This document shows, in pieces, positions 24,039 to 50,795 of a stretch of 64,000 nucleotides of DNA. This DNA is from Desulfobulbaceae bacterium. GTDB lineage: Bacteria; Desulfobacterota; Desulfobulbia; Desulfobulbales; SURF-16. Within the stretch, counting starts at the first letter, position 1; each line of letters opens with the position of its first letter. Position numbers and translations under genes: made by a program. The notes beneath the pieces were generated by a model. It made no database searches. It worked only from the letters and a program-made list of their open reading frames with translations, and was not told the origin of the DNA. The stretch lies in assembly GCA_023230525.1 (NCBI GenBank), contig JALNXE010000001.1, positions 39,488-103,487 of the forward strand. The letters run 5' to 3'.

Positions 24039-24039
24039 A

Positions 24040-36327: not shown

Positions 36328-37458
36328 TTAATCAAGATGTCCTCTAAGTTCCAGAACCTGCAAAAGCTGTTCTCGGATTTCCTTTGCCGTCGCTGCAAGA
36401 TCAACGGTGGCAAATCGAATCTCATGGTTCTGGATCTCAACGGCCTCGTTAACCATATCGCCCACTGAGGGGTGAAGGAGCAGTCCCGAGGCGCTCTCCG
36501 CGAGCGAGTCGCCGTTGCCTTCCTGGGACCTCAAGTAAGCGTAAATCTGATAGATATATCCACTTCGCAGTGTTTCTTCCCGATACCAGCCACGTGTTAC
36601 CACGGAGTTGAACTTGGTGTCTATGACGATGCGGCGTCCCGCGTCTGAATGGTTAAGGATGATGTCGGTTCTCATGGAGGGGAGGATTTTATCGATGCCC
36701 GGACTCTTGTTTTCAACCAGCCAGCCAATCGTTTTGCCAGCGTCAACACGCCATCCTTTCCTGGAAAGTACGACATCGTAAAATCCCGCAAGACCTTTCT
36801 CGTAAAGCTTCCTAACCCAGGCAATTTCTCTGTCAGGTAACGATAGATTTTTCGCGCCTGCGGATTCCGTAGGCAAGGCAAGGTTGAAGGCCAGCTGCGC
36901 CACAGAAACCATTGGCTGATCATTTGCATCGTGTCTGCCGAAGCGGTCGATGGCCCCATCGCCACGCCTTGGCCGCTCCCCGGTTACGCCAATACGCCTT
37001 AAGCTTGCCGCCAACGATCTGCATCGATGAACCAGTCCATCACGGTCGACTATTTTGGAAATTTTCTCTAGCGCTGCTCGGATATAACGGTTTCGGGCAG
37101 TATCGACAGTCAATTCGTTGAAGCGGCAAGCTACCTTCCCTCGATCAAGTAGTCGGTGTGTTTCGGTGTTCAGCAAGTCAATGCGCCCGCGCACACGACC
37201 AAGAACTGCTTCCCGGGATTGGTACCCATAACTCAAGTTCCGTTGAATGCGGCGCTCGACCTGATAACAGAGCATTTCTGCGACCAGATCCGGAATGTCA
37301 TCGGGGTTATCCTCTACGGCTACGTTTTTATTTTCGAGAACCCGGAAGAGATCCGATGCATACAGCATTAGCAGCCAAAGGTTGCGCACCGGGATGCGGC
37401 CAATACGACCAATCCCTTCATGGGCGTCTGACATCAAGTTGGCAGCAGCAATGGCCAT
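36328..37458 (-). CDS. mcrC: McrC (nuclease subunit of McrBC-type modification-dependent restriction system)
   Basis: 376 aa. The C-terminal PD-(D/E)xK-like RRIVIDTKFN…IYQIYAYL motif is present, and the gene lies 2 nt downstream of mcrB. Confidence 0.85.
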   Translation of the reverse strand: MAIAAANLMSDAHEGIGRIGRIPVRNLWLLMLYASDLFRVLENKNVAVEDNPDDIPDLVAEMLCYQVERRIQRNLSYGYQSREAVLGRVRGRIDLLNTETHRLLDRGKVACRFNELTVDTARNRYIRAALEKISKIVDRDGLVHRCRSLAASLRRIGVTGERPRRGDGAIDRFGRHDANDQPMVSVAQLAFNLALPTESAGAKNLSLPDREIAWVRKLYEKGLAGFYDVVLSRKGWRVDAGKTIGWLVENKSPGIDKILPSMRTDIILNHSDAGRRIVIDTKFNSVVTRGWYREETLRSGYIYQIYAYLRSQEGNGDSLAESASGLLLHPSVGDMVNEAVEIQNHEIRFATVDLAATAKEIREQLLQVLELRGHLD

Positions 37459-37460
37459 AA

Positions 37461-40049
37461 TCAGAATCCTTCAAGCAGGAGCTTCCTGGCCTTCTGAGAT
37501 TTTTCAAGCGTATCGAACCAGTATTCATCGAGCAACGGCCCGATCTCGGTGTCAACGACCTGGCGGAACCATTCCCGAGCATCACTAATCGGAACATCGA
37601 ACGGAGGCGTGACATAGCTGTGCCCCACTCGGAACTGAGGCCCGAGACCGGTATCAGCTGAGATGTCGTTGTTCAGAGCATTGAGACGCTTCTCAATCTC
37701 AACGAGGATTTCTGAATCAATGCCGCACTGGGATTGAACCCAGTCGTGCCAAGGCTTACCAAGGATGGGCTCCAGATCGATGAAGGCAAAACGGCGACGC
37801 AGCGCAAAATCGACCAGCGCAAGAGAGCGGTCTGCAATATTCATCGTGCCGATGACGTATAGATTGTCCGGAATAAAAACTCGCTCATCATCCGAACGTT
37901 TGTAGGAAAGCTCCAATGCTTCATTCGGCGTTCGCTTATCCACCTCGAGCAGCGTCAACATCTCGCCGAAAATCTGTGCGGGGTTTCCGCGGTTGATTTC
38001 TTCAATGACGACGACGTGCCTTGACATGGGATCTTTCGCGGCTGCCTTCATCATCTCCACAAAAGGTCCATCTACCAGTGTAAGCTTTCCGTCGCCAACC
38101 GGTCGCCAACCACGAATAAAGTCCTCATAAGAAAGGTTCGGGTGAAACTGAACCGCTCGGACCTTGCTGTCATCGCGTTGCCCTATCAACGCAAATGCCA
38201 ATCTTTTGGCCAGCCAGGTCTTTCCAGTTCCTGGCGGCCCCTGGAGGATCAGGTTTTTCTTGGTCCGAAGACACTTGAGAATCTTTTCGAGTTTTTCTCG
38301 GACGATAAAACAACCATCTGTTAAAATGTTATCTATTGAATACGGAACTATTGGTCGAGACCCATCCAAGATAGAAGTTGAGGTCGAAAAAAAATCAGTA
38401 AAATGCTTGTAGTTATTCAACTCTGATTGAGACTGATTTAACAATTCCAGTCCTTTTTTGGAAATCTGTACGAACCCTCTCCTGGGGAAATCAACCAATT
38501 CAGCCTTCTTTAGGTAAGACTTTGCCCAAGCTGCACGATTATCAAATAATGGCTGGCCTGTAGATTCGAGGGTGATGACATCATATTTTTCCAGCCCCAT
38601 TTCAGACTTAAGTTTCTGGTACACTTCTCTCGCAAGTTGCTCCCGCCCATCACTTAACAGTCTCAAAAGTGGGATCATTAATAAGTCAAATTTTGGGAGT
38701 AACTTTTTTAAATCGGCATCAACTTCATCTGGGGCAACCTCTTCTTCAAACACTTCGTCATCCTGCGCATCTGGGTCTGTCGCATTCGGATGGGCAGATG
38801 TCCCGCTGTCTTTAAAAAGCCAAGCCGCGAGGGAAAGTTCCGGAAAGGAGTGGACTGGATAAGCGTCCTCTTGAAAGCGAGCTTCGAGGGTATCCAGCAC
38901 CACCAGATAATCACTCGCATTGCAACGCCCCTTTGGGCCGTTCATGCCTATCTGGATATTGAGTTTTTTGCCGATGTAACGCTGGGACTGGCCATCAAGC
39001 GTCGGGAAATTCCAAGGGCGAATCCAGTAGAGCCCCATGGTAAGGTTCCATCCGACACCCCAGCGCAGCGTCGCGTTGTCGTAGGCAGCGACAAATGCCG
39101 ACCGTGCATTAGCATCATCCGATTCCGCAAAAGCAATCGCCTGGGCGAAGGCTTCCCAGAGTGTGTCAATGTCATCTTGTTGTCGTTTGTAGCTGTAGCC
39201 AAAAAACCATGTCCTCTGATTGTTGAGAACAGGAATTCCTTCAAAGGATTCGGGAACAGTCTCTGACACACCAAGCAGGCTTGCCAGTTCGCTCGCTATG
39301 GTTTTGCGATTGGCATCAGTAATCCCCCGGTTGAATATGCCCATGACCGTAAATGGGCAGATGTCTTTCAGAGGACCTCCCGGCACGCTTTCTTGGTATT
39401 GGTCATTGAGAATAGACATGCAATCGACTTTTTTGGCGATAGCGTGAATTCGGGAAATCAGCTCGTCACGCCGGTTTCTAAAAGTGAGAAGCTTGTCGGC
39501 CACCGCCTCATAAAACCGGGTCCAGTGGAAGCGGCGTTTGTCGACGGCGCTATCGCCGAAACGCTCCCGCCAATAGGGAGCGTTTCGGAATCGGTTGATG
39601 TCCTGCGCCTTTTCCTCGAACGTAAATCCGATGAGGGCGTCTGTGGTCCAGTCCCCTGGCAAGACGCGCCAGATCGTGCTTCGATTGGTATAGAAGTACC
39701 ACTCACGTGGCGGATCGAAGGGTTTCCAGTCAACCTTTAAGGTACGGCCATCTCCGAGGTTCTCTTTTACCGTGCCAATGGCTTTGATCGCCATGACTGA
39801 AACGGTCTGGCCACGGTTATCAAAGGGCAGATCGTGTTTCCGCGTATAGGACGATTTGATTGAAATACGGTCCCCAACCTGGATGGACTTGACCGCATCG
39901 AGGTATTTGCCTTGATAACCATTCTCCCAAATGCCTTGCTGCAGAAAACGGGGTGTTTGATCATTAGTTCCACCGTATGAGGACCCGACAAACCAGCAGG
40001 CTCGGGCTCCGGCCCCTTCAGGTTTAGAAGTCATAATCTGTTCTCCCAT
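37461..40049 (-). CDS. mcrB: McrB-family AAA+ GTPase with a long (~560 aa) N-terminal extension including an Mrr_N-type winged helix
   Basis: LILQGPPGTGKTW, VVVIEEINRGN, GTMNIADRSLALVDFALRRRF are the McrB GTPase motifs. The segment LLMIPLLRLLSDGREQLAREVY…NRAAWAKSYLKKAELVDFPRRGFVQISKKGLELL resembles the Mrr N-terminal wHTH. The first ~130 aa look like a PUA/EVE-like barrel, which is inference. Confidence 0.88.
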   Translation of the reverse strand: MGEQIMTSKPEGAGARACWFVGSSYGGTNDQTPRFLQQGIWENGYQGKYLDAVKSIQVGDRISIKSSYTRKHDLPFDNRGQTVSVMAIKAIGTVKENLGDGRTLKVDWKPFDPPREWYFYTNRSTIWRVLPGDWTTDALIGFTFEEKAQDINRFRNAPYWRERFGDSAVDKRRFHWTRFYEAVADKLLTFRNRRDELISRIHAIAKKVDCMSILNDQYQESVPGGPLKDICPFTVMGIFNRGITDANRKTIASELASLLGVSETVPESFEGIPVLNNQRTWFFGYSYKRQQDDIDTLWEAFAQAIAFAESDDANARSAFVAAYDNATLRWGVGWNLTMGLYWIRPWNFPTLDGQSQRYIGKKLNIQIGMNGPKGRCNASDYLVVLDTLEARFQEDAYPVHSFPELSLAAWLFKDSGTSAHPNATDPDAQDDEVFEEEVAPDEVDADLKKLLPKFDLLMIPLLRLLSDGREQLAREVYQKLKSEMGLEKYDVITLESTGQPLFDNRAAWAKSYLKKAELVDFPRRGFVQISKKGLELLNQSQSELNNYKHFTDFFSTSTSILDGSRPIVPYSIDNILTDGCFIVREKLEKILKCLRTKKNLILQGPPGTGKTWLAKRLAFALIGQRDDSKVRAVQFHPNLSYEDFIRGWRPVGDGKLTLVDGPFVEMMKAAAKDPMSRHVVVIEEINRGNPAQIFGEMLTLLEVDKRTPNEALELSYKRSDDERVFIPDNLYVIGTMNIADRSLALVDFALRRRFAFIDLEPILGKPWHDWVQSQCGIDSEILVEIEKRLNALNNDISADTGLGPQFRVGHSYVTPPFDVPISDAREWFRQVVDTEIGPLLDEYWFDTLEKSQKARKLLLEGF

Positions 40050-40121
40050 AATGAGACATGTCTGGAGTGCATTCCTTGAATTGCAAAATGCTTTAGTACT
40101 TTCGAGAACATGTGCAAAAAA

Positions 40122-41756
40122 CTATCTAATCGAGACGCACTCATCACCAACGCGTTGGTATCCGCTGTCACAAACCCATTTATGGCCGGTGTAATCGACA
40201 CTTGCGTTCGGGGGGACATAAAATTTCACACACTTATCACCTTCCGGGCGATAGCCACTGTCACAGACCCACTTGCGACCGGTGTAGTCAACACTAGCGT
40301 TTACAGGAACTTTGAATTTCACGCATTCGTTCTCCACCTGCCGATAACCGCTGTCACAAACCCATTTACGGCCGGTGTAATCGACGCTTGCGTTCGGGGG
40401 GACATAAAATTTCACACACTTATCACCTTCCGGGCGATAGCCACTGTCACAAACCCACTTGCGACCAGTGTAGTCAACACTAGCGTTTACAGGAACTTTG
40501 AATTTCACGCATTCGTTCTCCGCCTGCCGATAACCGCTGTCACAAACCCATTTACGGCCGGTGTAATCGACGCTTGCGTTCGGGGGGACATAAAATTTCA
40601 CACACTTATCACCTTCCGGGCGATAGCCACTGTCGCAAACCCAGTTTCGCCCTGTGTAATCAATGTGCGCGTTCGCAGGGATTCCACTCGACCTTCTTGT
40701 TTCCTGCACTGGCCTCGATTCAACTCTCGGAGGAGTCAGGCTAGATCGATGTTGCGGATTTGTCTGGCTTTGAGTTTTAGTTTGGGAAACGGGCGGTTTA
40801 TAAGCGGCTTTTGCTCTTCTAAGCGTACTCAATAAGTCTTCGCCAATCCAGCCATCCTGGGTGATGCCAGCGTCGCGCTGAAAAGCCTTCACCGCGTCGG
40901 CAGTCCGGCGACCATAATCGCCATCCACCGGTCCAGGGTCGTAGCCGAGATCGGTTAGGAGCTGTTGAGCTTCTTTGGTGTATTGGGAGCGGGGCTTCTT
41001 GGGAGCGCTACTCTTCGATACGCCTGGGGATACCGCTGGGTAGGAGCGGCTGCCCAACTGTCTGGCCTCTCGAATGGCCTCCGCGACGATTTGGGTTCGG
41101 TAGGATTCAACATCTCGTTCAGCTAGCGATCGGGAACCTTGGCGATGCTGATACCGCCCACAGCGGCTGTTGTAATCATTAACGATCCGGTTGAATTCAT
41201 CGACACCTTCATTTGTATCAATAATGTCTCTCATCGCCTCGATACGAATGCCTTCCCGGACGCACCAGCGAATCTCCGGCACGGAAAGCACATTGTTGGT
41301 ACCGACCGAAGGCTTTGTATATTGCAGTCCGACGCTTTGGGTCGCGCTTGGCGCTTGGACTGCCGGAGCGGGGCTGCTCTGCGGGTAGCTGTAGCTCTGA
41401 GACGACGATGGCGGATTGTATGAAGGTGTTTTGTTGCTTTGACTTCCATTGTTAATCAGCCAGATCACAAAAACAACCCCAATAATGCCAAGAATCCATT
41501 TACCCCCCGAGCCACTGCTGCTTTTGCCAGAGTTCACGGTTTCGATGGGTGGAGGAGAGTTTGTGGTTTTCTGCTCGGGTTCGGACGTGGCTGGTTCCCG
41601 TTGAGTCTGGAGCGGTTGCTTCGGGGTCGGGGGCTTAGCCTCCGCTTTTGGTTCGAGCTTTAAAGGCTCGTCGATGCCACTGAGCTCGGACGCCAAGTCT
41701 GAAAGCCCGGAGAATCCTTTTTTATCCTTATCGTTATCACCAGCCATGGGCATCAA
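40122..41756 (-). CDS. Membrane-anchored protein with peptidoglycan-binding domain (PG_binding_1-like) and six C-terminal Cys repeats
   Basis: It has an N-terminal cytoplasmic KKGFSGLSDLASELS motif and one TM (WILGIIGVVFVIWLI). These are followed by QQLLTDLGYDPGPVDGDYGRRTADAVKAFQRDAGITQDGWIG (PGBD-like) and then 6 x ~31-aa repeats NASVDYTGRKWVCDSGYR…C(V)KF. Confidence 0.7.
   Translation of the reverse strand: MMPMAGDNDKDKKGFSGLSDLASELSGIDEPLKLEPKAEAKPPTPKQPLQTQREPATSEPEQKTTNSPPPIETVNSGKSSSGSGGKWILGIIGVVFVIWLINNGSQSNKTPSYNPPSSSQSYSYPQSSPAPAVQAPSATQSVGLQYTKPSVGTNNVLSVPEIRWCVREGIRIEAMRDIIDTNEGVDEFNRIVNDYNSRCGRYQHRQGSRSLAERDVESYRTQIVAEAIREARQLGSRSYPAVSPGVSKSSAPKKPRSQYTKEAQQLLTDLGYDPGPVDGDYGRRTADAVKAFQRDAGITQDGWIGEDLLSTLRRAKAAYKPPVSQTKTQSQTNPQHRSSLTPPRVESRPVQETRRSSGIPANAHIDYTGRNWVCDSGYRPEGDKCVKFYVPPNASVDYTGRKWVCDSGYRQAENECVKFKVPVNASVDYTGRKWVCDSGYRPEGDKCVKFYVPPNASVDYTGRKWVCDSGYRQVENECVKFKVPVNASVDYTGRKWVCDSGYRPEGDKCVKFYVPPNASVDYTGHKWVCDSGYQRVGDECVSIR
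40125..40673. repeat. In-frame tandem coding repeat, 93-nt unit in a 186-nt super-unit (six copies)
   Basis: Successive 186-bp units are nearly identical at the nucleotide level, with only a few substitutions (e.g. cagaccc/caaaccc, ctccacctg/ctccgcctg). Confidence 0.9.
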
Positions 41757-41932
41757 CCCCTTCCGTTTCGCACATAAATTTCATGCCGAGCTTCCTCATA
41801 TGAACGTCAACCCCCAAGCGCCCAGGCCGCCAATGCCCATACAAAAAATAATCACCGGAGTATATCCAGAGCTTTTCTTCTTGGCGGGCAGCCCTGTATC
41901 CGGATGCCCGTGAGCCTGCCCCAGATCGCCGA

Positions 41933-42397
41933 TCATCTTGGCTGGCCGCTTACTCCCAACTGCCGACCCAAGATCTCGAACAACCTCCGCTTGACCACCT
42001 GTGGGCTTGTGTCGCCTTCATATTCACCGAGGTTCAATCGTGTCTCGCCGGTGAAGAGGCCAATCATCAGCGGCCCCATTTTGCTGCCACCCTCGGCTTG
42101 AAGGAGCTTGCCAGCTTCGCTGCCGAGCATTTTGGCCAGCATTCCAATATCGGCCTGCTCAAGGGGAAGAGTCATAATCGGCCGGTGGGATGGACCGTAA
42201 GGATTTCTGTCGATACGGTAAAAAACCGACATGGCGTAGTGGTAGGTCATCCCCTGATACTCGGCCTTCTTACCCTGAATTTCCATGGTGAAGTCAAGAA
42301 CGGTCTTCGGTTTCTTCTGGAAGTGAGGAAGAAATCTCCCCAGACCCAGGTCTCTCCGGCATGGACGCTCGACCATGGAGCAGGAAGAGTTGGTCAC
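41933..42397 (-). CDS. Hypothetical 154-aa protein (GTG start, 4-nt overlap with the upstream 49-aa ORF)
   Basis: The ORF is in operon context; no domain recognised. The start is GTG at 42397, overlapping the TGA of the small ORF (GTGA). Confidence 0.4.
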   Translation of the reverse strand: MTNSSCSMVERPCRRDLGLGRFLPHFQKKPKTVLDFTMEIQGKKAEYQGMTYHYAMSVFYRIDRNPYGPSHRPIMTLPLEQADIGMLAKMLGSEAGKLLQAEGGSKMGPLMIGLFTGETRLNLGEYEGDTSPQVVKRRLFEILGRQLGVSGQPR

Positions 42398-42543
42398 TTG
42401 GTCAGCTCCAGCAAGGCGAACAGCGGCTTTTGAGGTGCTGATGGGTGTAAGCTGGTTTGGCGTTGTGCCTGTGGGATAATCCGGGTGTCCGAGGTCAGAT
42501 CGGAGAGTCCAGAAAATCCGCGTTTGTTGTCTTTTTTATCCAT
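42394..42543 (-). CDS. 49-aa peptide MDKKDNKRGFSGLSDLTSDTRIIPQAQRQTSLHPSAPQKPLFALLELTK (below the ORF-track cutoff)
   Basis: Found by hand translation. A GAAGGGGA Shine-Dalgarno sits 6-7 nt upstream of the ATG at 42543. It shares the K(K/R)GFSGLSDL(A/T)S motif with the N-terminus of the 544-aa protein and is translationally coupled to the next gene. Confidence 0.4.
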   Translation of the reverse strand: MDKKDNKRGFSGLSDLTSDTRIIPQAQRQTSLHPSAPQKPLFALLELTK

Positions 42544-42583: not shown

Positions 42584-44530
42584 CTACGAATCCCACCTCA
42601 ATGAGAAATGTTCATCTAATAAATGAAAAATCACATCCGTGTCGATTACGGTGCTGAATTGTGGAATCTTCGTAAGGGATACTTCTCGCTTTATTTTGTC
42701 GAGAATCCCAAAATCTTTCTTTCTCATCTCAACGTAGCCATACCCACGCAAAAATGAAGTTGATGACAGTCCGAAGTCACGCCCTTTGAACACGATTTTG
42801 TCACGCGGATAGAAGTAGCACTTATCATATTCGAAATAGCCATTTCTTTTTATTTGCGACTCATAAAACTCGACCCGGCGATCAAATGTAACATGAGATA
42901 AATATGAGTAGAACTCGACGACCGTCTTGATTTGTGCTGATTTGTCTTTGTTGAAGAAAAAGCCTTGCTCATCTACAGAGATCTTGACCTCTTGGCCTCC
43001 AGACATCGTAAGATAAATATTGGCCTGCTCAGTTTTTCCCGTTTCGATGAAGTTGGTCTTATGGGTTGTGACTGCTCGATAGAATCCAATATGACGAATA
43101 TCGTTGGTGCTATACGTCCTCCCCTTAAATGAAAATGTGTTGCCGTTTAGATTAAATTCTCTGAATTGAGAAAGGAGCTTGCTTCGGTTTGCGGCTATTT
43201 CTTGAAGGGCCTTGTCATCATTGGTAATGCGATCAGAAATTTCACCTGCATCCTCAAATACCCCAAGAAGAGCCTTTGTAAGCTGCTGAGCAAAATCGAG
43301 CTTGTCATGCTTGTTGAACATATGAATCGCCAAATCTCGAACGGTCCAAGCAGCGTGTTGGCTCGCATCATGCTCGGGATCAATTTCCCAATTCTTGACG
43401 AGCTGACAAAGCTGGTTAACTTTTTGCGATAAATATGAATCTGGCCGCCTACTATCTAAGTCAGCTTTTATCTGGGTAATGAATTCCTCGATTTTCGATA
43501 CTTCTGAATGAAGAACCCTTTGTTCCGCTATCTCGCCGAGCGCATCTGCATCCTCAGCGGTGCGTTCGGCAACCTTACCAACTTCCGCGAACACTTCCTG
43601 CAGCATGTTCGTGAGTTGTTGTGAGAAATCGAGCTTGTTATGCTTGTTGAACATATGAATCGCCAGGCCACGAACCAGACCTGCAACGCGGTCGCTCGCG
43701 TCGTGATCGAGCCCTCGACTCTTTGTGCTGACCTGAATCGGCTGGGCGACGGAATCCCAATTCTTAACAACCTGGATTAGCTGGTTCACCAGGGGGGCCA
43801 ATGTGGAATCGGGCCGTTCCGCATCCACGGCGGCCCGCAGTTTTTCCACGAGGGCTCTTATGTTCCCTTCTTCCTTGTCAAGGAACCCCTGTGCCTCTAC
43901 CTCATACGAATCAACAAGGTCGGCTATCAGAATAGGGCCGTGTTCCTCGCCATCGTCAGTCGCGGATTCGACGGCAACGGTAACTGCCTCCACGAGTTCT
44001 TTTGGGGAGAGGTTGTCAAGGGCCGACTTGATAACCTGGCGATAGTGTCTCCTCCGTTCTTGGATTTCAGCTTCTACGGCCGAGAGATCCGACACTTCCG
44101 GAAAACCGGAAACAACCCGTTCCTCGTTAATGATCGCGCTCAGCTCCTCGGGGTCGATATCTTCAAACGCCCAGGCGATCTCAAGAATCCATTCCGCAAC
44201 GTCATTGGCAATGTGATCAGGCAAACGAGCAAGGCCTGCCGCAAGCAGGTTCGCCCGAGCAATTGACGACAGTTTGTCGACAGCGAGCAAATCCGCTGGC
44301 GAGGTCTCGAGGAGCGACAACACCTCTCCGGCTCGTTTAGGTCCAATACCGGGCAGCCAAGCTACTTCAGCGGAGAGCCTTTTCCGGGGGTTGGTCAAAT
44401 CGGAACGCGCCTCTATGCAATCACTTGAGTCGAGCAGCAAGCTACGTTCGTCGGCCAATTCCATGATTCGCCGTCGGTTATCGCGGGGGCTGGCAGTCAG
44501 AATATGAAAAGGATTTTGTAATAGGTCCAT
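42584..44530 (-). CDS. 648-aa protein with a degenerate J-domain-like N-terminus, an internally duplicated helical module and a beta-rich C-terminal domain
   Basis: NPFHILTASPRDNRRRIMELADERSLL…NPRKRLSAEVAWL has J-domain helix I-II spacing but no HPD. An internal repeat is present (…VKNW…RGLAIHMFNKHNKLDFSQQLT… / …VKNW…RDLAIHMFNKHDKLDFAQQLT…). It lies between the AAA+ gene and the small ORF. Confidence 0.45.
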   Translation of the reverse strand: MDLLQNPFHILTASPRDNRRRIMELADERSLLLDSSDCIEARSDLTNPRKRLSAEVAWLPGIGPKRAGEVLSLLETSPADLLAVDKLSSIARANLLAAGLARLPDHIANDVAEWILEIAWAFEDIDPEELSAIINEERVVSGFPEVSDLSAVEAEIQERRRHYRQVIKSALDNLSPKELVEAVTVAVESATDDGEEHGPILIADLVDSYEVEAQGFLDKEEGNIRALVEKLRAAVDAERPDSTLAPLVNQLIQVVKNWDSVAQPIQVSTKSRGLDHDASDRVAGLVRGLAIHMFNKHNKLDFSQQLTNMLQEVFAEVGKVAERTAEDADALGEIAEQRVLHSEVSKIEEFITQIKADLDSRRPDSYLSQKVNQLCQLVKNWEIDPEHDASQHAAWTVRDLAIHMFNKHDKLDFAQQLTKALLGVFEDAGEISDRITNDDKALQEIAANRSKLLSQFREFNLNGNTFSFKGRTYSTNDIRHIGFYRAVTTHKTNFIETGKTEQANIYLTMSGGQEVKISVDEQGFFFNKDKSAQIKTVVEFYSYLSHVTFDRRVEFYESQIKRNGYFEYDKCYFYPRDKIVFKGRDFGLSSTSFLRGYGYVEMRKKDFGILDKIKREVSLTKIPQFSTVIDTDVIFHLLDEHFSLRWDS

Positions 44531-44542
44531 GCTCCCCTCCGG

Positions 44543-46012
44543 TTACTTGTCATCCCGGACGAATCCTATACGTCTGCTTTTTTTCTCTTGGTCTTTTGGA
44601 AGGCTGTTCAACGCTGCATCAATGCTCTCTTGATCGAGCTCTGTCTTACTGGCCTTGGCAGCGAGCCGTGCGGCCTCGCGTATGACAAAGGCCGAATCGG
44701 AGAGCGCCTTACCCGTGAGCGCATTGAGGATCTTGTCCACGTTAAGATCGTCTGCTTTCGGCAGCTTGCTCAAGAGTGAGTCCACCAGCGAAGCCACTTC
44801 TTCCCTCGACGGCATGCCAACCTCGATGATGTGGTCAAAACGGCCGCGCCGCAGAATCGCCGGATCGATCATTTCGATCAGGTTCGTCATGGCGATAATC
44901 AGCACCTTGTTCTTGATGGCTTCCGGAATCCGACGAAGAAACTCGGCTACCTCTTCGACGTGATGCAATCCGGACGAGCTCCCAGAGCGTCTATCCGACA
45001 GAAAAGATTCCATCTCGTCGATGACGATGACGGACGGAGCGCCATCAATCGCCTTGTCAAAAACCTCGGAGATCTTCTTGCTGGTTTCGTGAATGTAGGG
45101 GCTGCCGACACTGTTCGAATCAATCGAGTAGCTTGGCCAATCGATAAACTCGACAAGACGCTCCACAGCAAAGGTTTTGCCACAACCTGGCGGCCCATGC
45201 AGGACGATGGCGGAAGGAAAATCGATACCCAAGACTTGATATTTCTCGGCATTGAAGATGATGTCGATGACGTGTTCGTTGAAAAACTCCTCAAGCTGTG
45301 GTCGCCCTGGAAGTGTGAACACCTTGGCCTCGGCCGGTTCCTCGGATGATTGCGGCTGTTCAGGTTCGAAAGCCTCCTTAGCAATGGTGGTCTTTGCCTC
45401 GGTCTTGGGTTGAGAAGACGGCTTGCATTTAGCCAGTAGACCAGCATTTGCAGGCAAGGTAAATCCGGCAGCCTTTATAATTTCTGCCAGATCGCCAGCG
45501 GGCATCCAGCCAGTGAGTTTAGTCAAGCGCCGGAAGGATTCCGTTGATATGACGACCCCACCGGTGATCCAGGTTCCCAAGACAACCTCATCATCTACGT
45601 GAGGTGTCAGCGTCCAGGCCGGGAGCAGTCTGGAGTACTGTTCCACATAAACGGCATCGTGGAAGGAGGCATCCTCGGATAGTTTGCGAGACTCTTTGAG
45701 AGCGAAAGCAAAGGCCAGTGCATCGACCTTGCTTTCAGGGGATTTCCCATTTTCAACCGGAGTCAGGGTGTACTTTTTATGGCTGCTCAGACTCTGGAGT
45801 GCTTCAGCTCCGAACGAAACATCCCCGAACACGGATTCGTCAAGAAAACCGCATTCATTCCACTTCCTCGCCAGCTCCGGCAGTGTGAGCAGGATATTAT
45901 TTGAACCATTGGTATCGAAAATCTGCCACTCATCTCCTGAATAGAGAAGCGACCGGATTTTCGACCCGTCTGGCAATTCATACCCTTTAGGCAGCCATAA
46001 ATCCTTCGCCAT
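44543..46012 (-). CDS. Classic-clade AAA+ ATPase (Cdc48/FtsH-like single AAA module) with an unknown ~250-aa N-domain
   Basis: Walker A LHGPPGCGKT, Walker B SVIVIDEME and second region of homology TNLIEMIDPAILRRGRFD. Confidence 0.88.
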   Translation of the reverse strand: MAKDLWLPKGYELPDGSKIRSLLYSGDEWQIFDTNGSNNILLTLPELARKWNECGFLDESVFGDVSFGAEALQSLSSHKKYTLTPVENGKSPESKVDALAFAFALKESRKLSEDASFHDAVYVEQYSRLLPAWTLTPHVDDEVVLGTWITGGVVISTESFRRLTKLTGWMPAGDLAEIIKAAGFTLPANAGLLAKCKPSSQPKTEAKTTIAKEAFEPEQPQSSEEPAEAKVFTLPGRPQLEEFFNEHVIDIIFNAEKYQVLGIDFPSAIVLHGPPGCGKTFAVERLVEFIDWPSYSIDSNSVGSPYIHETSKKISEVFDKAIDGAPSVIVIDEMESFLSDRRSGSSSGLHHVEEVAEFLRRIPEAIKNKVLIIAMTNLIEMIDPAILRRGRFDHIIEVGMPSREEVASLVDSLLSKLPKADDLNVDKILNALTGKALSDSAFVIREAARLAAKASKTELDQESIDAALNSLPKDQEKKSRRIGFVRDDK

Positions 46013-46015
46013 AAA

Positions 46016-48511
46016 TCATCCCCTGATAATGTTGGCAACATCCATCAAATCATTTTCAGATCCTCTTCCAATCTTGATTGAATAGAGTTCACCAACAACA
46101 GCACGAAGCTTTTCAATATCATCAGTACGCATAAATTGCGCACCGAGCTTGGTAAGTTCCTGGAAACGGTGTTTGTCGGCAAAGAGATGAGGCGAGCTGG
46201 CCATCCACTTGAACCGATCGACCACAAACCAATCCTGCCGCCAGAGAATCTCCCAGTTCTTTCCTTTCAACTCATCAAGGTAGTGTTCGAAATTCTGGTT
46301 CGTTTCTCCAATACAACGTTGCGCCGTCTTCGCCAAGTTGTCGAAGGCCGACGATTCGGACGGGCGGGCATGCTGCCGAATATGTTCGTCGAAGAAGGTC
46401 ACCACACCATCGAGGTCAATCTGGCGAATCTCCTTGAGGTGTTCCTTTCGAACCTGGGCAAGAAGTCGCCGTGCCTCGAGCACCTTCTCCATGGCCTCCT
46501 GGGACTTCTCGGTCTCTTTTTCTTCTGGATCGAGCGAGACGGCGGATTCAAGTTTCTGCCGTGCTTGCTCCAGTTTTGGGTTGTCCACTACCTCATTGAT
46601 CTCATCGATGCGATTCAGCGTTCTTTCGCCTTCCTCGACGACCATGACGGCGGCGGCGGTGTAGTCGAGCTGTCCCTCCTGACGGGAATAGAAGTTCTTC
46701 CCTGAGTGGAAGGTCCCGCCGATGCAGGGCACGGATACTTCGATGATAATATTACCGGAGTCCAGGATTTCGTATTCGCATTCAAGATCGGCTCCGGCGT
46801 GAATCACGCCATCATCGAAATCGGAGCCGGAAATTTTCAAGACGCCGATGGGGCGGTTGTCGGTAATGGGGTCTTCGATCTCACCCTCCCAAAGTTTCAG
46901 ATTGAGTGAGCCAGACGCGCCCGCTTTGAGAGACTCAGCCGCCTTAAATATCTTTTTGCCCTTCTTCGGCAGTGAATCGCCCGAACGGATCAGATAGTCA
47001 AGTACGGGGCGGCCGCCGAGTTTCTCCAAGACCTCGATGCCAACTGAGTGAGAGGCCGGGATGGCATCCACTGTGGCGGCGGTTCGGGTAATGACAATCT
47101 TGTCCTGTTCCAGGGCAATGGGGCCACCCACGGAATCGAACATAAACACCTTGAAGGTGTTGTCGCCAGTTTTTGTCAGGGTAACGTCGATGGTTGCGCC
47201 ATGCTTGAGAGGAAGGCGGCCGGAGGTCCAGCCGGTGTCGACGCTATCGATCTGAAACTCAGAGCCAACCGCAGCTTGGCCTGCCAATTGGACGGCGATC
47301 TTTGCTTTAACATCCGGTGTGCGGGCGATGTAATTGAAAGACAGCGCCAGCCCGCCTCCGGAAGAAATTTGCCCACGGGTATTCTTGCGCGACCGGTTCT
47401 GGGAACTCCAGTCAATGGATTCCGCGAAGAGGCTTGCGCCTTCCGCCACGGCCGTCATGGGATTTACATCGGTGCTTCCCGGAATACCCAGCTCAAAGGC
47501 GACCTTGTCGCGCAGGGGTTTGTAATTGGTCGGGCCACCGACGAACACAATACGTTCCAGGTCATGCGGAGAAAGACCGGCCTTATTGAGTGTCTCTCGA
47601 GCAGACTCGATTGATTCGCCTACGCGCTCGGAGATCAGCTTGTCATAGGTGGCTCGCTGCAAAGGAATATCGAGATAGATTTCATTGCCGCTAAGATCCC
47701 GAACGCGGGCCTCGGTTTCCGATAGGCTGATTACGGAATCTTCACGGGCCGAGAGTTCAATCTTAGCGCGCTCGGTGGCCCAAGCGGACAGCCGAATGAG
47801 CGACTTGAAACTCGGATTCACGGAAAAGTCTTCAGGGAGGTCGAAGTTTTCCAGCAGCCAAGGTCGCACAACGTTATCGACGAGGACGCGGTCAAAATCC
47901 CTGCCGCCACACATGGCAATACCACCGTGGGCGAGGAGGTTGACCCGCCCACCAATGCTTTCGGCAATGGCGATATCGAGTGTGCCGCCACCTAGGTCAT
48001 AGATCAGAAACATGCCGTCGGTATTGCGGGCACGCATGACGCTCATGACCGCCGCGACCGGTTCCTGCATAAGCGCAATCTTGCCGAGACCAGCCATGCT
48101 GGCGGCCTGCATGGTGGCGTCCTTCTGCATCTGGTTAAACGCCGCAGGAACGGTTATGACGGTTCCTGTATCGGGATCGTTTCTGATTTCCTCTGGTAAG
48201 TAGCCGAACAGAACCTTTAGAACCTCTGCGGAGCATTCTTCGGGGGTCTTTGTGAGGTTCATCGCAGAAAGCTGAACTGGCGTGCTCGTCCCCATGAGCC
48301 GCTTGAACAGCATCGCCGCGTTATCTGGGCTGTGCGGAGCCGAATCGTAGGCCCGCTTGCCCACGTATTTGTTGCCGCGTCGGTCGATATAGATCACCGA
48401 TGGCGTCACATCATTCTGTTCAGGACTCTTCCAGGTTCGGGTTTCGGAACCGTCATAGGAACAGATAGCGCTGTTAGTTGTACCCAGGTCAATGCCTATG
48501 AAATTTTTCAT
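46016..48511 (-). CDS. Non-canonical Hsp70-family ATPase (831 aa, extended C-terminus)
   Basis: Hsp70 NBD motifs IGIDLGTTNSA, TVPAAFN, IYDLGGGTLDIA, VFVGGPTNYKPLR. The beta-rich substrate-binding-like region is followed by a ~230-aa helical tail that is longer than in DnaK. Confidence 0.9.
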   Translation of the reverse strand: MKNFIGIDLGTTNSAICSYDGSETRTWKSPEQNDVTPSVIYIDRRGNKYVGKRAYDSAPHSPDNAAMLFKRLMGTSTPVQLSAMNLTKTPEECSAEVLKVLFGYLPEEIRNDPDTGTVITVPAAFNQMQKDATMQAASMAGLGKIALMQEPVAAVMSVMRARNTDGMFLIYDLGGGTLDIAIAESIGGRVNLLAHGGIAMCGGRDFDRVLVDNVVRPWLLENFDLPEDFSVNPSFKSLIRLSAWATERAKIELSAREDSVISLSETEARVRDLSGNEIYLDIPLQRATYDKLISERVGESIESARETLNKAGLSPHDLERIVFVGGPTNYKPLRDKVAFELGIPGSTDVNPMTAVAEGASLFAESIDWSSQNRSRKNTRGQISSGGGLALSFNYIARTPDVKAKIAVQLAGQAAVGSEFQIDSVDTGWTSGRLPLKHGATIDVTLTKTGDNTFKVFMFDSVGGPIALEQDKIVITRTAATVDAIPASHSVGIEVLEKLGGRPVLDYLIRSGDSLPKKGKKIFKAAESLKAGASGSLNLKLWEGEIEDPITDNRPIGVLKISGSDFDDGVIHAGADLECEYEILDSGNIIIEVSVPCIGGTFHSGKNFYSRQEGQLDYTAAAVMVVEEGERTLNRIDEINEVVDNPKLEQARQKLESAVSLDPEEKETEKSQEAMEKVLEARRLLAQVRKEHLKEIRQIDLDGVVTFFDEHIRQHARPSESSAFDNLAKTAQRCIGETNQNFEHYLDELKGKNWEILWRQDWFVVDRFKWMASSPHLFADKHRFQELTKLGAQFMRTDDIEKLRAVVGELYSIKIGRGSENDLMDVANIIRG

Positions 48512-48513
48512 AG

Positions 48514-48888
48514 TTACAGCTTCCTCAAAGTGACGGTTCCTGTCTTAACCAAACCTTCTTTCCCCATAATGATCGGCTCCAGCATCTGATCGACTATCAA
48601 GGCATCTTTCGCATCGAACTCTTCGATATTCAGGGGGGTAGCGGCCATGCCGGGGTCGAAGGGATGCCCCTCGACGTTGACGATTCGCAAACCCGTTTGT
48701 TCCAGAGCCTCTTCGACCTTTTTTATGAACCAACGAAACTGGCTCTTGTACCGGTTCTGTTCTCCGGCATCGAGTTTTAGCAGCAGGCGATCAAACACCC
48801 GGCCAAAACGCCAGGACTCAACCGCCATACTGATCACCGCATCCCGCATAGCCTCGGGGTGAGTTATGGTTTGCTCGGAATCCAACAT
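48514..48888 (-). CDS. GrpE-like nucleotide-exchange factor (C-terminal domain only, 124 aa)
   Basis: ALEQTGLRIVNVEGHPFDPGMAATPLNIEE…IVDQMLEPIIMGKEGLVKTGTVTLRK parallels the GrpE beta-domain pattern (G-x-FDP-x-H/M-x-A … RpA-V-V-V). It ends 2 nt before the Hsp70 start. Confidence 0.65.
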   Translation of the reverse strand: MLDSEQTITHPEAMRDAVISMAVESWRFGRVFDRLLLKLDAGEQNRYKSQFRWFIKKVEEALEQTGLRIVNVEGHPFDPGMAATPLNIEEFDAKDALIVDQMLEPIIMGKEGLVKTGTVTLRKL

Positions 48889-49570: not shown

Positions 49571-50437
49571 TTATCTTTTCCGCTTACTCTTATGAAAAGT
49601 TGGTGGTTCCCAGGGCCATTCATCATCTGTATTATTCAAGCTTTCTTCATCCTCATCTTCACAATCCCCTAAGCCGTCCTCATCATATAATAGGGTTAAA
49701 ACCTGGCCATAAGAGTTAATAGGCAAGGCCCATTCAAGGATTTCTGAATGACTTTTTAACTTTTTACCGGCAACCCAGATATTTGCCTTTACTGAGTCAA
49801 ACAGATCATCTGGAATATCGCCTTTCAAAGCAGCAAATGTCTGGGTATCAGAAGGAACATCGCGGTTGTCCATATCAATATAAAGATTGAAGTTTTTAGC
49901 TGCACGAAACCAAGCTAACTTATTCTTTTCGCATACCAATAGTGCGCAGCTCTCTTCAGTCAATTCAATATATCTAATCACCGTAGCTAATTTAGAGGTT
50001 TGACTCATCTCTGACAACTTCATTATATTGTCCCAGCCAGGGTCATGTTCTTCGACAAGTTTCAGGAAAACACTTCTTGGCATCAAGAGCTCTGCCGCAA
50101 ATTCATTAGCCCTTAGCTCTATTGGTGAGTTGCTTTTAGAATTTGTCCCAATGGAGCTTCGTGGGCAAAAAAATGAGTTTGAATCAAAAGTATCCAGGCA
50201 GAAATGCCCCAGCTCATGGGCTCCTGTAAAATTTTTTCTCCCGATTTCGTTTATTGTTGAATTGACGCAAATCATTCCATTGAGAGCATGATCAAGAAAT
50301 AAAATTCCATCAATCTCCTTCAGGGATTTTTCAATGTAAAATATGCCCAACTTCTCACATATATTACGTGGGATGATAGGTAGCGAATCCAGACCTAATT
50401 CATCTAATAATTTGACTGCCTCATTTCTCGGGTCCAT
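49571..50437 (-). CDS. capP: ImmA/IrrE-family zinc metallopeptidase, CapP-like (CBASS-associated protease)
   Basis: HEXXH motif (GAHELGHF). The preferred start is MDPRNEAV at 50437, 7 nt after the HTH gene stop. It is paired with an XRE HTH and divergent from a CBASS operon. Confidence 0.75.
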   Translation of the reverse strand: MDPRNEAVKLLDELGLDSLPIIPRNICEKLGIFYIEKSLKEIDGILFLDHALNGMICVNSTINEIGRKNFTGAHELGHFCLDTFDSNSFFCPRSSIGTNSKSNSPIELRANEFAAELLMPRSVFLKLVEEHDPGWDNIMKLSEMSQTSKLATVIRYIELTEESCALLVCEKNKLAWFRAAKNFNLYIDMDNRDVPSDTQTFAALKGDIPDDLFDSVKANIWVAGKKLKSHSEILEWALPINSYGQVLTLLYDEDGLGDCEDEDEESLNNTDDEWPWEPPTFHKSKRKR

Positions 50438-50444
50438 AAACGGC

Positions 50445-50795
50445 TCATTTCTTTTTTGACTTAAAAAAATCGACCATTTTTTCAATCGTTTCTTTGTCTT
50501 CAGAATTCAATGATTGGAATCCCCGGAAAAAAGTTCTGATATCTTGATCATGTAATAAAGCGCCTAACTCAGACTCATCTGTTTTACCCAACAGATAATC
50601 AATGGATACATTTAAAACAGATGCGATTCTCTGCAGGACCGGTATCGTTGGTGTTCTTGTCCCTTTCTCGATTTGCGAAATAGCCGCCGGGGTTACACCA
50701 GATTTTCCCGCGAGCTGGGCCTGGTTAAGGTTCTTCCCTTCTCGGGCAAGAGTGATACGCTGCCGCAATATCTCCTTATTAAATTCTTTCATCAT
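50445..50795 (-). CDS. capH: XRE-family HTH repressor, CapH-like
   Basis: LNQAQLAGKSGVTPAAISQIEKGTRTPT is a Cro/CI HTH. 116 aa, upstream of the metallopeptidase and divergent from the CD-NTase operon. Confidence 0.75.
   Translation of the reverse strand: MMKEFNKEILRQRITLAREGKNLNQAQLAGKSGVTPAAISQIEKGTRTPTIPVLQRIASVLNVSIDYLLGKTDESELGALLHDQDIRTFFRGFQSLNSEDKETIEKMVDFFKSKKK

Follow-up and report, generated by a model that had tools for sequence, protein, structure and literature searches.

A conserved N-terminal tag on the membrane proteins of an uncharacterised Hsp70-like/AAA+ cassette, a probable docking or client motif

The cassette and its closest described relatives

The recognition of a short motif by a specialised bacterial Hsp70 is known from HscA, which with its co-chaperone HscB recognises the LPPVK motif of the dedicated client IscU. 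Short motifs or free tails are also what classical-clade AAA+ ATPases, among them Vps4/CdvC with their MIT-MIM pairing and Msp1/ATAD1, use to engage membrane-associated substrates, and a candidate defence pair, IetAS (Gao et al. 2020), reportedly consists of the AAA+ protein IetA and the protease IetS. Chaperone- or NTPase-centred conflict systems have also been described, including the MoxR-vWA ternary and GTPase/Hsp70/tubulin systems (Kaur et al. 2020, PMC7159879) and the CoCoNuT systems with their Hsp70-like CnuD proteins (Bell et al. 2024, PMC11090510).

The cassette described here lies in the window, by which we mean the whole stretch of 64,000 nucleotides from a Desulfobulbaceae bacterium that was analysed. 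It is made up of a small protein (g1), an Hsp70-like protein (g2), an AAA+ protein (g3), a protein of ~550 aa (g4) and one to three membrane proteins whose N-terminus is inside the cell; of these g6 is the constant membrane subunit, and other tagged membrane proteins such as g5 are optional. In the window the genes and the features within them are as follows.

48514 to 48888, minus strand: g1, an ORF for a small protein of 124 aa, the first gene of the cassette
46016 to 48511, minus strand: g2, Hsp70-like ATPase of 831 aa (Pfam HSP70, E=2.2e-53, residues 5-363 only)
44543 to 46012, minus strand: g3, classical-clade AAA+ ATPase of 489 aa (Pfam AAA, E=1.2e-27, residues 269-399)
42584 to 44530, minus strand: g4, helical protein of 648 aa with a degenerate J-like N-terminus (AF2 pLDDT 79)
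41796 to 42543, minus strand: g5, disrupted pseudogene of a tail-anchored protein of ~250 aa (aligned to 8 intact orthologues)
42487 to 42525, minus strand: first tag copy, KRGFSGLSDLTSD, within the 49-aa head that survives of g5
40122 to 41753, minus strand: g6, intact membrane protein of 543 aa (Pfam PG_binding_1, E=7.2e-16)
41685 to 41723, minus strand: second tag copy, KKGFSGLSDLASE, N-terminal in g6
41454 to 41498, minus strand: transmembrane helix of g6
40162 to 40663: tandem repeat of 186 bp in g6, 2.7 copies, 96% identity

This arrangement is highly conserved. A total of 95 related loci were compared, and the tagged peptidoglycan-binding protein adjoins the cassette wherever the upstream sequence suffices: g1, the Hsp70-like gene and the AAA+ gene adjoin g6 in all 53 metagenome loci with enough upstream sequence, with g4 present in nearly all of them, and at least one other cassette gene is found in 71 of 80 loci, the other nine having less than 520 nt upstream of g6. 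The same linkage is seen in genome loci, on an E. coli chromosome, on an Aeromonas plasmid and on four IMG/VR contigs.

The most conserved cassette protein across divergent loci is g2. It has an actin-like nucleotide-binding domain (residues 1-363), an insert of ~110 aa, a probable SBD-beta-like domain (residues ~481-585) and a helical C-terminus. Its matches in the PDB, to the nucleotide-binding domains of DnaK (E=1.9e-52), are confined to the first of these and end at residue 363, and the profile of its C-terminal part gives weak matches to the substrate-binding domain of DnaK (E=0.0065 and 0.012), a peptide-binding module in g2 being plausible. The gene lying upstream of it in all related loci with enough flank, g1, may be GrpE-like; its score against Pfam GrpE is 16.3 bits (E=0.0083, over 45 residues), below the cutoff of 25.8, and its profile has no match in the PDB. 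The Walker A (GPPGCGKT) and Walker B (VIVIDEME) motifs are visible in the translation of g3, and its AAA module is nearest to PAN, FtsH, Cdc48 and CdvC, preceded by an N-terminal domain of ~240 aa in which Pfam recognises neither MIT nor any other known domain.

The initial annotation gave g4 a "J" label, which proved weak. No match to its sequence was found in Pfam, NCBIfam or the PDB, and hhalign against a small J-domain alignment gave a probability of 33% with the HPD loop falling within a 13-residue gap; g4 was rejected as a J-domain protein (Hsp40), there being neither a profile match nor an HPD tripeptide. The AF2 model is helical to about residue 455 and ends in a beta-rich domain, and Foldseek returned weak alpha-solenoid likenesses only. 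More than 1700 relatives of g4 were found. Its C-terminal module is exchangeable between loci and comes in at least three types; that of the window is "type B" together with a duplicated helical segment, unlike the canonical form of 548 aa.

From N- to C-terminus g6 carries the tag, a low-complexity linker, the transmembrane helix, a periplasmic domain with cysteines (RWC...RC), PG_binding_1 and Cys-rich repeats. The Cys-containing periplasmic domain is conserved and the Cys-rich repeat region is variable.

Like HscA-IscU, the cassette has a non-housekeeping Hsp70 paralogue in an operon with partners that bear one short invariant motif. However, g2 scores far below the HscA and DnaK cutoffs (205 bits against 648 for NCBIfam DnaK) and has the additional insert and a different C-terminus, by these measures being Hsp70-like and not a DnaK or HscA equivalog; furthermore the co-chaperone-like g4 lacks an HPD loop, the tagged partners are membrane proteins, an AAA+ ATPase is obligatory and binding of the tag by g2 is hypothetical. 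The likeness to Vps4/CdvC and Msp1/ATAD1 lies in a single-ring classical-clade AAA+ protein with an extra N-terminal domain and in membrane-bound partners, one of them tail-anchored, several of which have a common short terminal motif. The resemblance of g3 to these is in the AAA module alone, and the tag is N-terminal and off the MIM consensus.

The best match of g3 in a defence library is IetA (PADLOC, E=2.6e-27; NCBIfam IteA_antiphage, E=8.9e-24), but it scores 84 bits against an NCBIfam cutoff of 510 and the cassette has no gene for an IetS-like protease, and on these two grounds the cassette was rejected as IetAS; IetAS itself, as modelled in PADLOC and NCBIfam, is without an Hsp70, g4 or tagged membrane proteins. 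The systems of PMC7159879 and PMC11090510 are similar in placing Hsp70-like and AAA+ ATPases in mobile, patchily distributed multigene cassettes in defence-island contexts, and an McrBC pair adjoins the cassette in the window, whereas the cassette has no vWA, GTPase, tubulin, HEPN or coiled-coil McrB component. Neither paper describes tagged peptidoglycan-binding membrane proteins or g4, and the architectures do not match. A candidacy of g2 as CoCoNuT CnuD was likewise rejected, with architectures that differ and an adjacency to McrBC that is not conserved in other loci.

The tag and the proteins that bear it

Both copies of the tag in the window fit the pattern K[KR]GFSGLSDL[TA]S on the minus strand. 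When aligned over 13 codons they are identical at 10 of 13 residues as against 25 of 39 bases, with different codons at eight of the 10 identical residues, which bears out the initial observation that the motif is kept as a peptide whilst the DNA is only loosely alike; the match is far beyond chance. The motif opens the orthologues of both proteins in all related loci examined, and the proposal of selection at the protein level is also upheld. A GAAGGGG Shine-Dalgarno sequence precedes both ORFs, so that the strong ribosome-binding site claimed for the 49-aa ORF is indeed present, and translation of the minus strand from 42543 to 42394 reproduces the reported peptide, MDKKDNKRGFSGLSDLTSDTRIIPQAQRQTSLHPSAPQKPLFALLELTK followed by a stop. 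The start reported for the second protein, (M)MPMAGDNDKDKKGFSGLSDLASELSGIDEP, is correct, and its length is 543 aa from the likely ATG at 41753 rather than the 544 aa first given.

Across the family the consensus is [KR]-G-F-[SA]-G-L-S-x-L-[VAT]-S-[DE]-[VI]. The tag is present in 134 of 148 cluster representatives (50% identity) at a median offset of 10 residues; its G and F were fixed by the search pattern, and among the positions that were freely scored G(+3) reaches 95% and the L, L and S about 90%. An exhaustive search with residues 1-260 of g6 returned 1646 clusters (50% identity) at E<=1e-3, and the tag opens nearly all of the best 150 of these 1646. It is found on g6 in every locus whose contig includes the N-terminus, in some as a variant such as KGFSALMDLVS; it lies about 8-12 residues into the protein, and a low-complexity linker follows. 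In the AF2 model of an intact g5 orthologue (P0004, overall pLDDT 80) residues 1-36 have a pLDDT below 50 and the tail is not docked on the protein's own domain. This disordered tail, together with a peptidoglycan-binding domain that is periplasmic and therefore places the N-terminus of g6 inside the cell, agrees with the cytoplasmic location first proposed for the motif.

Besides g5 and g6, no fewer than three further accessory families, otherwise unrelated, bear the tag. One is a 231-aa family (L002, L036, L038, L042, L044, L050, L051, L061), and more tagged accessory proteins occur in L088, L045 and L085 and, as a 349-aa protein, in Aeromonas. In three proteins (P0097, P0126, P0128) the tag is duplicated in tandem, as is typical of short linear motifs. 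The tag is missing from five of the six stand-alone relatives of g5 (P0076, P0074, P0079, P0072, P0073) and from the g5 homologue of L020, which belongs to a different Hsp70 system without AAA+ or g4. The exception is P0075 (L024), a tagged g5 relative whose neighbours are helicase, DprA-like and DISARM-like genes; the 4 kb upstream of it and the 10 kb downstream contain no cassette. The comparison supports a tag that is specific to proteins whose genes accompany the Hsp70-like/AAA+ cassette.

Fusions between cassette genes are also informative. Fusions of g5 to g6 carry a single tag (L018, P0043, P0162, P0167), and fusions of g4 to g6 (P0123, P0139, P0168) or to g5 (P0033, P0061) carry none. 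Such fusions point to a physical complex, and the tag is dispensable once g4 and the membrane protein form one covalent chain. Deletion could also have produced the fusions that involve g4; however, the g4-g6 architecture is common to P0139 and P0168, which are about 50% identical, and this speaks for its stability.

What the tag may do

Taken together we consider it probable that the shared peptide is the membrane-subunit tag of an uncharacterised Hsp70/AAA+ cassette, serving as a docking or client motif, and that g5 is a recent pseudogene. We infer a short linear motif that links the membrane subunits to the ATPase machine because the tag sits on a disordered cytoplasmic tail; its bearers are unrelated proteins of one machine, and it is lost in g4 fusions, as would be expected of such a motif. 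The cytoplasmic machine of Hsp70-like protein, AAA+ protein and g4 would seize each membrane subunit by its tag, and this grip would control the ATP-driven holding, remodelling or extraction of those subunits. As to the receptor, the clues conflict: g4 is favoured by the fusions and g2 by its conservation and SBD-like domain, and the untagged, AAA+-less L020, a single case, favours the AAA+ protein or g4.

An alternative, which we regard as unlikely, is that the AAA+ ATPase uses the tag as a substrate or degron-like handle and not as a stable docking site, the N-domain or pore of g3 taking the free tail so that the tagged membrane proteins are unfolded or extracted, in the manner of Msp1/ATAD1 acting on tail-anchored proteins or of ssrA-type tags. 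The position of the tag on an N-terminal tail that is free, disordered and continued by a long linker would suit such a handle, as would a tail-anchored g5, a g3 of the classical unfoldase clade with intact Walker motifs and the untagged g5 homologue of L020, the sole Hsp70-type system seen without AAA+. L020 is however one case and is also without g4, no protease encoded in the cassette was found with Pfam, PADLOC or NCBIfam, and g4 fusions that drop the tag suit an adaptor link better than a degron.

Less likely still is that the tag forms a short amphipathic helix (F-x-x-L-x-x-L-x-x-x-V) by which the membrane subunits bind one another or the membrane's inner face, and makes no contact with the ATPases. 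The hydrophobic spacing would suit such a helix, and AF2 places a four-residue helix at residues 14-17 with low confidence; several tagged proteins often occur in one cassette, and the tag can be duplicated in tandem. Most of the divergent cassettes however have g6 as their only tagged protein and keep the tag near-invariant, it is precisely in fusions of g4 with a membrane protein that the tag disappears, and the stand-alone g5 relatives keep their transmembrane anchor without it.

The 49-aa ORF as the head of a dead gene

The first of the two tagged ORFs was initially described as an unannotated peptide of 49 aa, although the public metagenome-assembled genome (MAG) record has it as hypothetical protein M0P70_00400 of Desulfobulbaceae bacterium. 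Alignment with intact orthologues indicates that it and two further small ORFs that were called separately (154 and 46 aa) are one dead gene, g5, the remnants and lesions of which are the following.

42394 to 42543, minus strand: 49-aa remnant
41933 to 42397, minus strand: 154-aa remnant
41796 to 41936, minus strand: 46-aa remnant
42394 to 42396, minus strand: premature stop, TGA in the window and TGG (Trp) in all aligned orthologues
42322 to 42323, minus strand: first -1 frameshift, one base missing, CAC-TTCC against the orthologues' GACTTTTC
41939 to 41940, minus strand: second -1 frameshift, GCC-AAG against the orthologues' GCCAAAG
41799 to 41858: C-terminal transmembrane anchor, severed by the second -1 frameshift

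In the intact protein the tag stands at the N-terminus, followed by a disordered linker, then an alpha/beta core and lastly a transmembrane helix at the C-terminus. When repaired to 249 aa the window copy matches 76 proteins, many of them intact at ~250 aa, with 75 to about 88% identity to these and 100% coverage in many phyla, and intact orthologues are present in 13 of 15 genome loci, again from many phyla. All eight aligned intact orthologues, as well as L001 and L002, read AAG TGG CCA where the window reads AAG TGA CCA. The TGG to TGA substitution is therefore the origin of the 49-aa ORF and also of the GTGA overlap reported with the next gene, which is an artefact; the frame of the supposed GTG start is the true g5 frame only past the -1 deletion 72 nt downstream. 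The ratio dN/dS is 0.167 for the window copy against intact orthologues and 0.102 among intact pairs, a rise that fits recent decay.

It would seem very unlikely that g5 is intact in the organism and that the stop and the two single-base deletions are sequencing or assembly errors of the MAG. Both deletions do lie in short homopolymer or low-complexity contexts (TTTT, AAA), and the related metagenome contigs L001 and L002 have scattered frameshifts of their own, in L002 in g4 too. However, there are three lesions within 750 bp, one of them a substitution, and none in the ~11 kb of flanking cassette and McrBC genes; the window copy also carries replacements at near-invariant positions (D62H, H117Y), and its dN/dS is somewhat raised.

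The candidate 49-aa ORF as an independent small gene was rejected, its stop being a Trp codon in intact orthologues with two frameshifts downstream, and the search of related clusters, which found the motif conserved, did not find the ORF conserved as a small gene: the orthologues encode ~250 aa with no conserved boundaries for a 49-aa sORF. The role initially proposed for it, that of a translationally coupled small protein competing with the membrane protein's tag or serving as its decoy, is highly improbable. The fragment does retain its ATG and Shine-Dalgarno sequence along with the tag and some of the linker; lying within the operon it may still be made, and could then compete, incidentally, for the receptor of the tag. 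However, the intact orthologues read through the stop site, no family of short tag-only ORFs emerged when the 49-aa peptide was the query (three proteins were returned, itself and two decayed copies of 81 and 84 aa, each truncated elsewhere), and the further degraded copies L065 and L019 break at yet other points.

Mobility and wider significance

The window is a conjugative element (TrfA, TraC, TrbI, TraK), and near the cassette are McrBC, an SNF2-PLD protein and CBASS; here McrB and McrC come directly after the cassette, and they are absent beside it in other loci. The E. coli copy adjoins RADAR, a Tn7-like element carries the Aeromonas copy as cargo, and the Thiohalobacter copy lies inside F-type tra genes; defence islands of E. 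coli and Vibrio, Vibrio cholerae included, carry the cassette. The cassette is horizontally mobile: across phyla its proteins share 80-93% identity (the tagged g6 about 80%). PADLOC has no models for g1, g2, g4, g5 or g6 and recognises the AAA+ module alone, and our literature search returned no published description of the cassette and no functional data for it. From its genomic context, namely the defence islands and mobile elements, we infer that it may be a conflict system against phages or other mobile elements.

The tag marks the membrane arm of a large gene cassette whose genes are annotated in public records as "Hsp70 family protein", "ATP-binding protein", "hypothetical" and "peptidoglycan-binding", and whose tagged membrane protein forms a family of at least 1646 clusters at 50% identity. 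As a near-invariant motif of 12 residues it offers a direct search handle for every subunit of such systems, and its F, L, L and S are a precise mutational target for the coupling of the Hsp70-like/AAA+ machine to envelope proteins. The copies in E. coli and Vibrio defence islands make the cassette open to experimental test. For the locus itself the record is corrected from three small "genes" to one dead gene.

Finally, and as a tentative proposal only, the tag could be the universal handle of unrecognised, very widespread and mobile Hsp70-based conflict systems that are triggered by infection. The Hsp70-like ATPase, the AAA+ unfoldase and a helical adaptor would then hold, extract or release tagged membrane proteins on infection, the exchangeable module of g4 would be the sensor, and the tagged set would consist of a peptidoglycan-anchored envelope protein with swappable tail-anchored or single-pass effectors. 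If true, this would be a bacterial counterpart of the eukaryotic Hsp70/AAA+ triage of tail-anchored proteins, put to use in immunity.

Decay of g5 in the window

A short N-terminal peptide motif, here called the tag, is common to a 49-aa ORF and to g6, the PG-binding membrane protein of the minus-strand cassette g1-g6. The minus strand at 42543-42394 translates to MDKKDNKRGFSGLSDLTSDTRIIPQAQRQTSLHPSAPQKPLFALLELTK followed by a stop, and the large ORF with its end at 40122, g6, has the N-terminus (M)MPMAGDNDKDKKGFSGLSDLASELSGIDEP. The two copies of the tag are encoded at:

42487-42525, minus strand: tag copy 1, coding stretch in the 49-aa ORF
41685-41723, minus strand: tag copy 2, coding stretch at the g6 N-terminus

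The initial annotation described these sequences accurately, in that the motif it gave as K(K/R)GFSGLSDL(A/T)S is found in both proteins and is alike as peptide, with 10 of 13 residues identical, but only loosely so as DNA, with 25 of 39 bases identical and different codons at eight of the ten identical residues. The peptide is not unannotated, as the public MAG record (Desulfobulbaceae bacterium) has it as hypothetical protein M0P70_00400, and the suggestion that it is an independent small protein, acting as a decoy or competitor for the g6 tag, is wrong, the ORF being the head of a dead gene, g5, of ~250 aa. Used as a query, the 49-aa peptide matched only itself and two longer proteins, P0002 (81 aa) and P0003 (84 aa), on whose contigs (related loci L001 and L002) TGG stands at the position of the window's TGA and the frame runs on.

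When the 49-aa ORF was joined with ORFs of 154 aa (41933-42397) and 46 aa (41796-41936), reading the TGA as Trp and mending two frameshifts, a 249-aa protein was obtained that has 76 homologues, dozens of which are intact at ~250 aa and are 75-87% identical to the repaired g5 over their full length. A scan of reference genomes found g5 at 15 loci in very different phyla, in 13 of which the gene is intact, with hosts that include Kiloniella, Oligella, Thalassolituus, Desulfopila, Acidobacteria, Nitrospirales and Hydrogenedentota. Alignment with eight intact orthologues placed the lesions of the window copy as follows:

42396-42394, minus strand: premature stop, TGG>TGA
between 42323 and 42322, minus strand: first frameshift, one base absent
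between 41940 and 41939, minus strand: second frameshift, one base absent

In this alignment the supposed GTGA overlap into the next gene is simply AAG-TGG-CCA turned into AAG-TGA-CCA by mutation. Relative to the ancestral protein, the "154-aa ORF" starts out of frame for ~25 codons, and the window copy has the replacements D62H and H117Y at near-invariant residues.

When the repaired window g5 is paired with intact orthologues, dN/dS is 0.167; it is 0.102 for intact pairs and 0.06-0.09 for neighbouring genes. The rise over the intact pairs is modest, so the decay is recent. It is unlikely that the lesions are an assembly error and that the gene is intact in the organism, since the ~11 kb of genes flanking g5 are free of lesions, and the sequence evidence points to decay that is both recent and real. 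Reassignment of the stop codon or programmed recoding of the TGA was rejected, as the TGA comes together with two frameshifts and the other genes end normally.

The AF2 model of a g5 orthologue, P0004 (pLDDT 80), consists of a disordered stretch at residues 1-36 that holds the tag, a confident alpha/beta core at 45-225 and then a C-terminal TM helix, and as modelled g5 is a tail-anchored protein. Foldseek comparison of the model with the PDB and BFVD gave no match at E<=1e-3 (TM-scores <0.3), Pfam, NCBIfam and PADLOC gave nothing for the 49-aa ORF, the 154-aa ORF or intact g5, and tblastn of g5 in plasmid and phage collections gave no match. The gene is accessory, being intact in ~26 closer loci, absent from most divergent cassettes and degraded in L045, L063 and L065, as well as in L001, L002 and L019. 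Five stand-alone distant relatives (P0076, P0074, P0079, P0072 and P0073) are without the tag. Another relative, P0075 (L024:4159-5055), is tagged, RGFAGLSSLVSD, and has a different C-terminus; its gene lies between a DprA-like gene and SNF2, NYN, DUF1156 and DUF499 genes, and no Hsp70 cassette was found near it within the L024 sequence examined, which makes it the only case in which the tag is not tied to the cassette.

The cassette and its tagged membrane proteins

The gene order g1-g2-g3-g4-g5-g6 is kept in all related loci, and the products are:

g1: ~125 aa, GrpE likeness below threshold
g2: 831 aa, Hsp70-like
g3: ~489 aa, AAA+ ATPase
g4: ~548 aa in related loci, 648 aa in the window, no family match
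g5: ~250 aa
g6: 490-640 aa, PG_binding_1

Pfam and PDB matches to g2 cover the Hsp70 nucleotide-binding domain only, with a profile of the C-terminal region matching DnaK SBD-beta weakly (E=0.0065). The AAA+ protein g3 belongs to the classical clade and has intact Walker motifs, its best match in the defence library being IetA, far below the family cutoff. At the N-terminus of g4 there is a faint J-domain likeness in which the HPD loop is missing, and the AF2 model has a long helical body followed by a beta-rich C-terminal domain; Foldseek of this model against the PDB gave no match at E<=1e-3 (TM-scores <0.3). The C-terminus of g4, in the window the last third of the protein (42584-43500; cf. 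L011:8348-9994), is modular and swappable on an N-terminal body that is ~90% identical. It occurs in at least three unrelated forms, type A being the canonical beta-rich domain, type B that of the window and type C helical with two TM segments, and this swapping looks like one sensor or effector module being replaced by another. Type B, in which a helical segment is duplicated, is shared with V. cholerae and V. mediterranei. Pfam, NCBIfam and PADLOC gave nothing for g4 types A and C or for the other tagged proteins.

The Cys-rich C-terminal repeats of g6 are encoded by a 186-bp tandem repeat at 40162-40663 in the window (2.7 copies, 96% identical, with a 93-bp sub-period). The periplasmic end of g6 appears to expand and contract quickly, as the length of the protein differs from ~490 to 640 aa among loci, and the repeat probably also accounts, as an antisense artefact, for a 241-aa ORF on the plus strand (40110-40835).

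An exhaustive search with g6 residues 1-260 (E<=1e-3, clustered at 50% identity) gave 1646 clusters. The motif proved to be conserved in related cassettes: the tag is present on 134 of 148 g6 cluster representatives, its median offset being 10 residues, and the 14 without it are either truncated fragments or fusions with g4. The consensus reads [KR]-G-F-[SA]-G-L-S-x-L-[VAT]-S-[DE]-[VI]; G and F were set by the search pattern, and of the positions left free, G(+3) reaches 95% conservation and L, L and S ~90%. The motif is genuine, under strong selection and more widely shared than the initial annotation could reveal.

A metagenome scan for g6 found 80 loci at 35-83% identity, and g1, the Hsp70 and the AAA+ genes are beside g6 in all 53 that have enough upstream sequence, with g4 in nearly all. 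At least one other cassette gene is present in 71 of the 80, the other nine having <520 nt upstream of g6, and the same link is found in four IMG/VR contigs, one E. coli chromosome and one Aeromonas plasmid. Unrelated tagged proteins also take the g5 slot, namely a family of 231 aa, an Aeromonas 349-aa protein, and proteins in L088, L045 and L085. The tag, being specific to one cassette and common to membrane proteins of it that are not related to one another, is by its distribution a hallmark of the cassette's membrane subunits.

In some cassettes extra, unrelated tagged single-pass membrane proteins without a Pfam family, one of them starting MNDKKGFSRLSDLTSD, are found between g4 or g5 and g6, at:

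L002:2693-3526
L036, L038, L042 and L044 (~231 aa)
L050, L051 and L061
L111:17732-18781

Some g6 proteins (P0097, P0126, P0128 and L079:4912-6072) have two tandem tags with a repeated linker between them.

Fusions, variants and a possible docking role for the tag

Fusions of g5 with g6 have a single tag, in the order tag, g5 core, TM, g6 periplasmic domain, PG-binding domain, and are found at L018:10001-11461 and in P0043, P0129, P0162, P0167, P0177 and P0223. This layout fixes the g5 core as cytoplasmic, and the fusions show that g5 and g6 work together at the membrane. A second set of fusions is tagless and joins the helical body of g4 either to the g6 TM segment with its periplasmic part (P0123, P0139 and P0168) or to the g5 core (P0033 and P0061). 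P0139 and P0168 have the same architecture at ~50% identity, which points to an evolutionarily stable fusion, and judged from these proteins the tag is dispensable once g4 is covalently joined to the membrane protein.

A distant Hsp70 system in a Phycisphaerales MAG (L020:3135-10711) is without AAA+ and g4, and its g5 homologue is untagged. Its other products are a protein of 612 aa whose N-terminus is more J-like, one of 239 aa, an Hsp70-like protein that shares 30% identity with g2, a coiled-coil TM protein of 366 aa and a 170-aa protein that is FHA-like by sequence pattern. A rule that absence of AAA+ means absence of the tag was rejected, L020 being its sole support; L079, which has no AAA+ and keeps the tag, is a deleted, decayed cassette in which the Hsp70 end, the whole AAA+ gene and the g4 start are gone (L079:1253-4859). 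Other decaying cassettes have frameshifts in g5 (L001 and L002) and also in g4 (L002), a split Hsp70 gene on the Aeromonas plasmid (L111:8995-11492), or an IS element that interrupts g6 in Oligella (L008).

The tag is near-invariant; the N-terminal tail that bears it is cytoplasmic and disordered, and after the tag comes a low-complexity linker. We infer that the tag may be a client or docking motif, linking the membrane subunits with a cytoplasmic machine of the Hsp70-like, AAA+ and g4 proteins. Its candidate receptors are the SBD-like domain of g2, g4, and the N-domain or pore of g3, and the clues conflict. Specialised Hsp70s such as HscA recognise one dedicated motif, and this precedent, with g2 being the most conserved component, would favour the SBD-like domain. 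The fusions would favour g4. The N-domain or pore of g3 would be favoured by the position of the tag on a free N-terminal tail, the tail anchoring of g5 and the untagged state of the AAA+-less L020. The C-terminal domain of g4, considered as receptor on account of the fusions in which it is lost along with the tag, was rejected, as it comes in at least three unrelated types and the tag is invariant; one type is moreover membrane-anchored, and it is from this type that the P0139 and P0168 fusions derive.

Genomic setting of the cassette

A search of the available literature library found no description of the cassette or of the tag motif. Hsp70-containing conflict systems (Kaur et al. 2020, PMC7159879) and the CnuD proteins of CoCoNuT systems (PMC11090510) differ in architecture from the tagged cassette, and linkage of the cassette to CoCoNuT or McrBC was rejected, as the adjacency is not conserved among related loci. 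In the window the cassette is found with a defence island:

36328-40049: McrBC, McrB with an Mrr_N domain and McrC
49571-50795: ImmA/IrrE and XRE regulator
51357-54111: CBASS CD-NTase and E1/E2 (Cap2-like) protein
55919-58624: SNF2-PLD helicase

The window belongs to a conjugative element that has TrfA and, of F type, TraC, TrbI and TraK; the features of island and element also take in 22235-30869. Elsewhere the cassette lies within F-type tra genes and, in E. coli HeN100, beside RADAR; on an IncP plasmid it is Tn7-like cargo. In the E. coli genome collection a megablast with the cassette as query gave no match, and one E. coli copy was then recovered by distant blastn. Across phyla the cassette proteins are 80-93% identical, with g6 at ~80%. 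A conflict or defence role for the cassette is plausible from the company that these genes keep.
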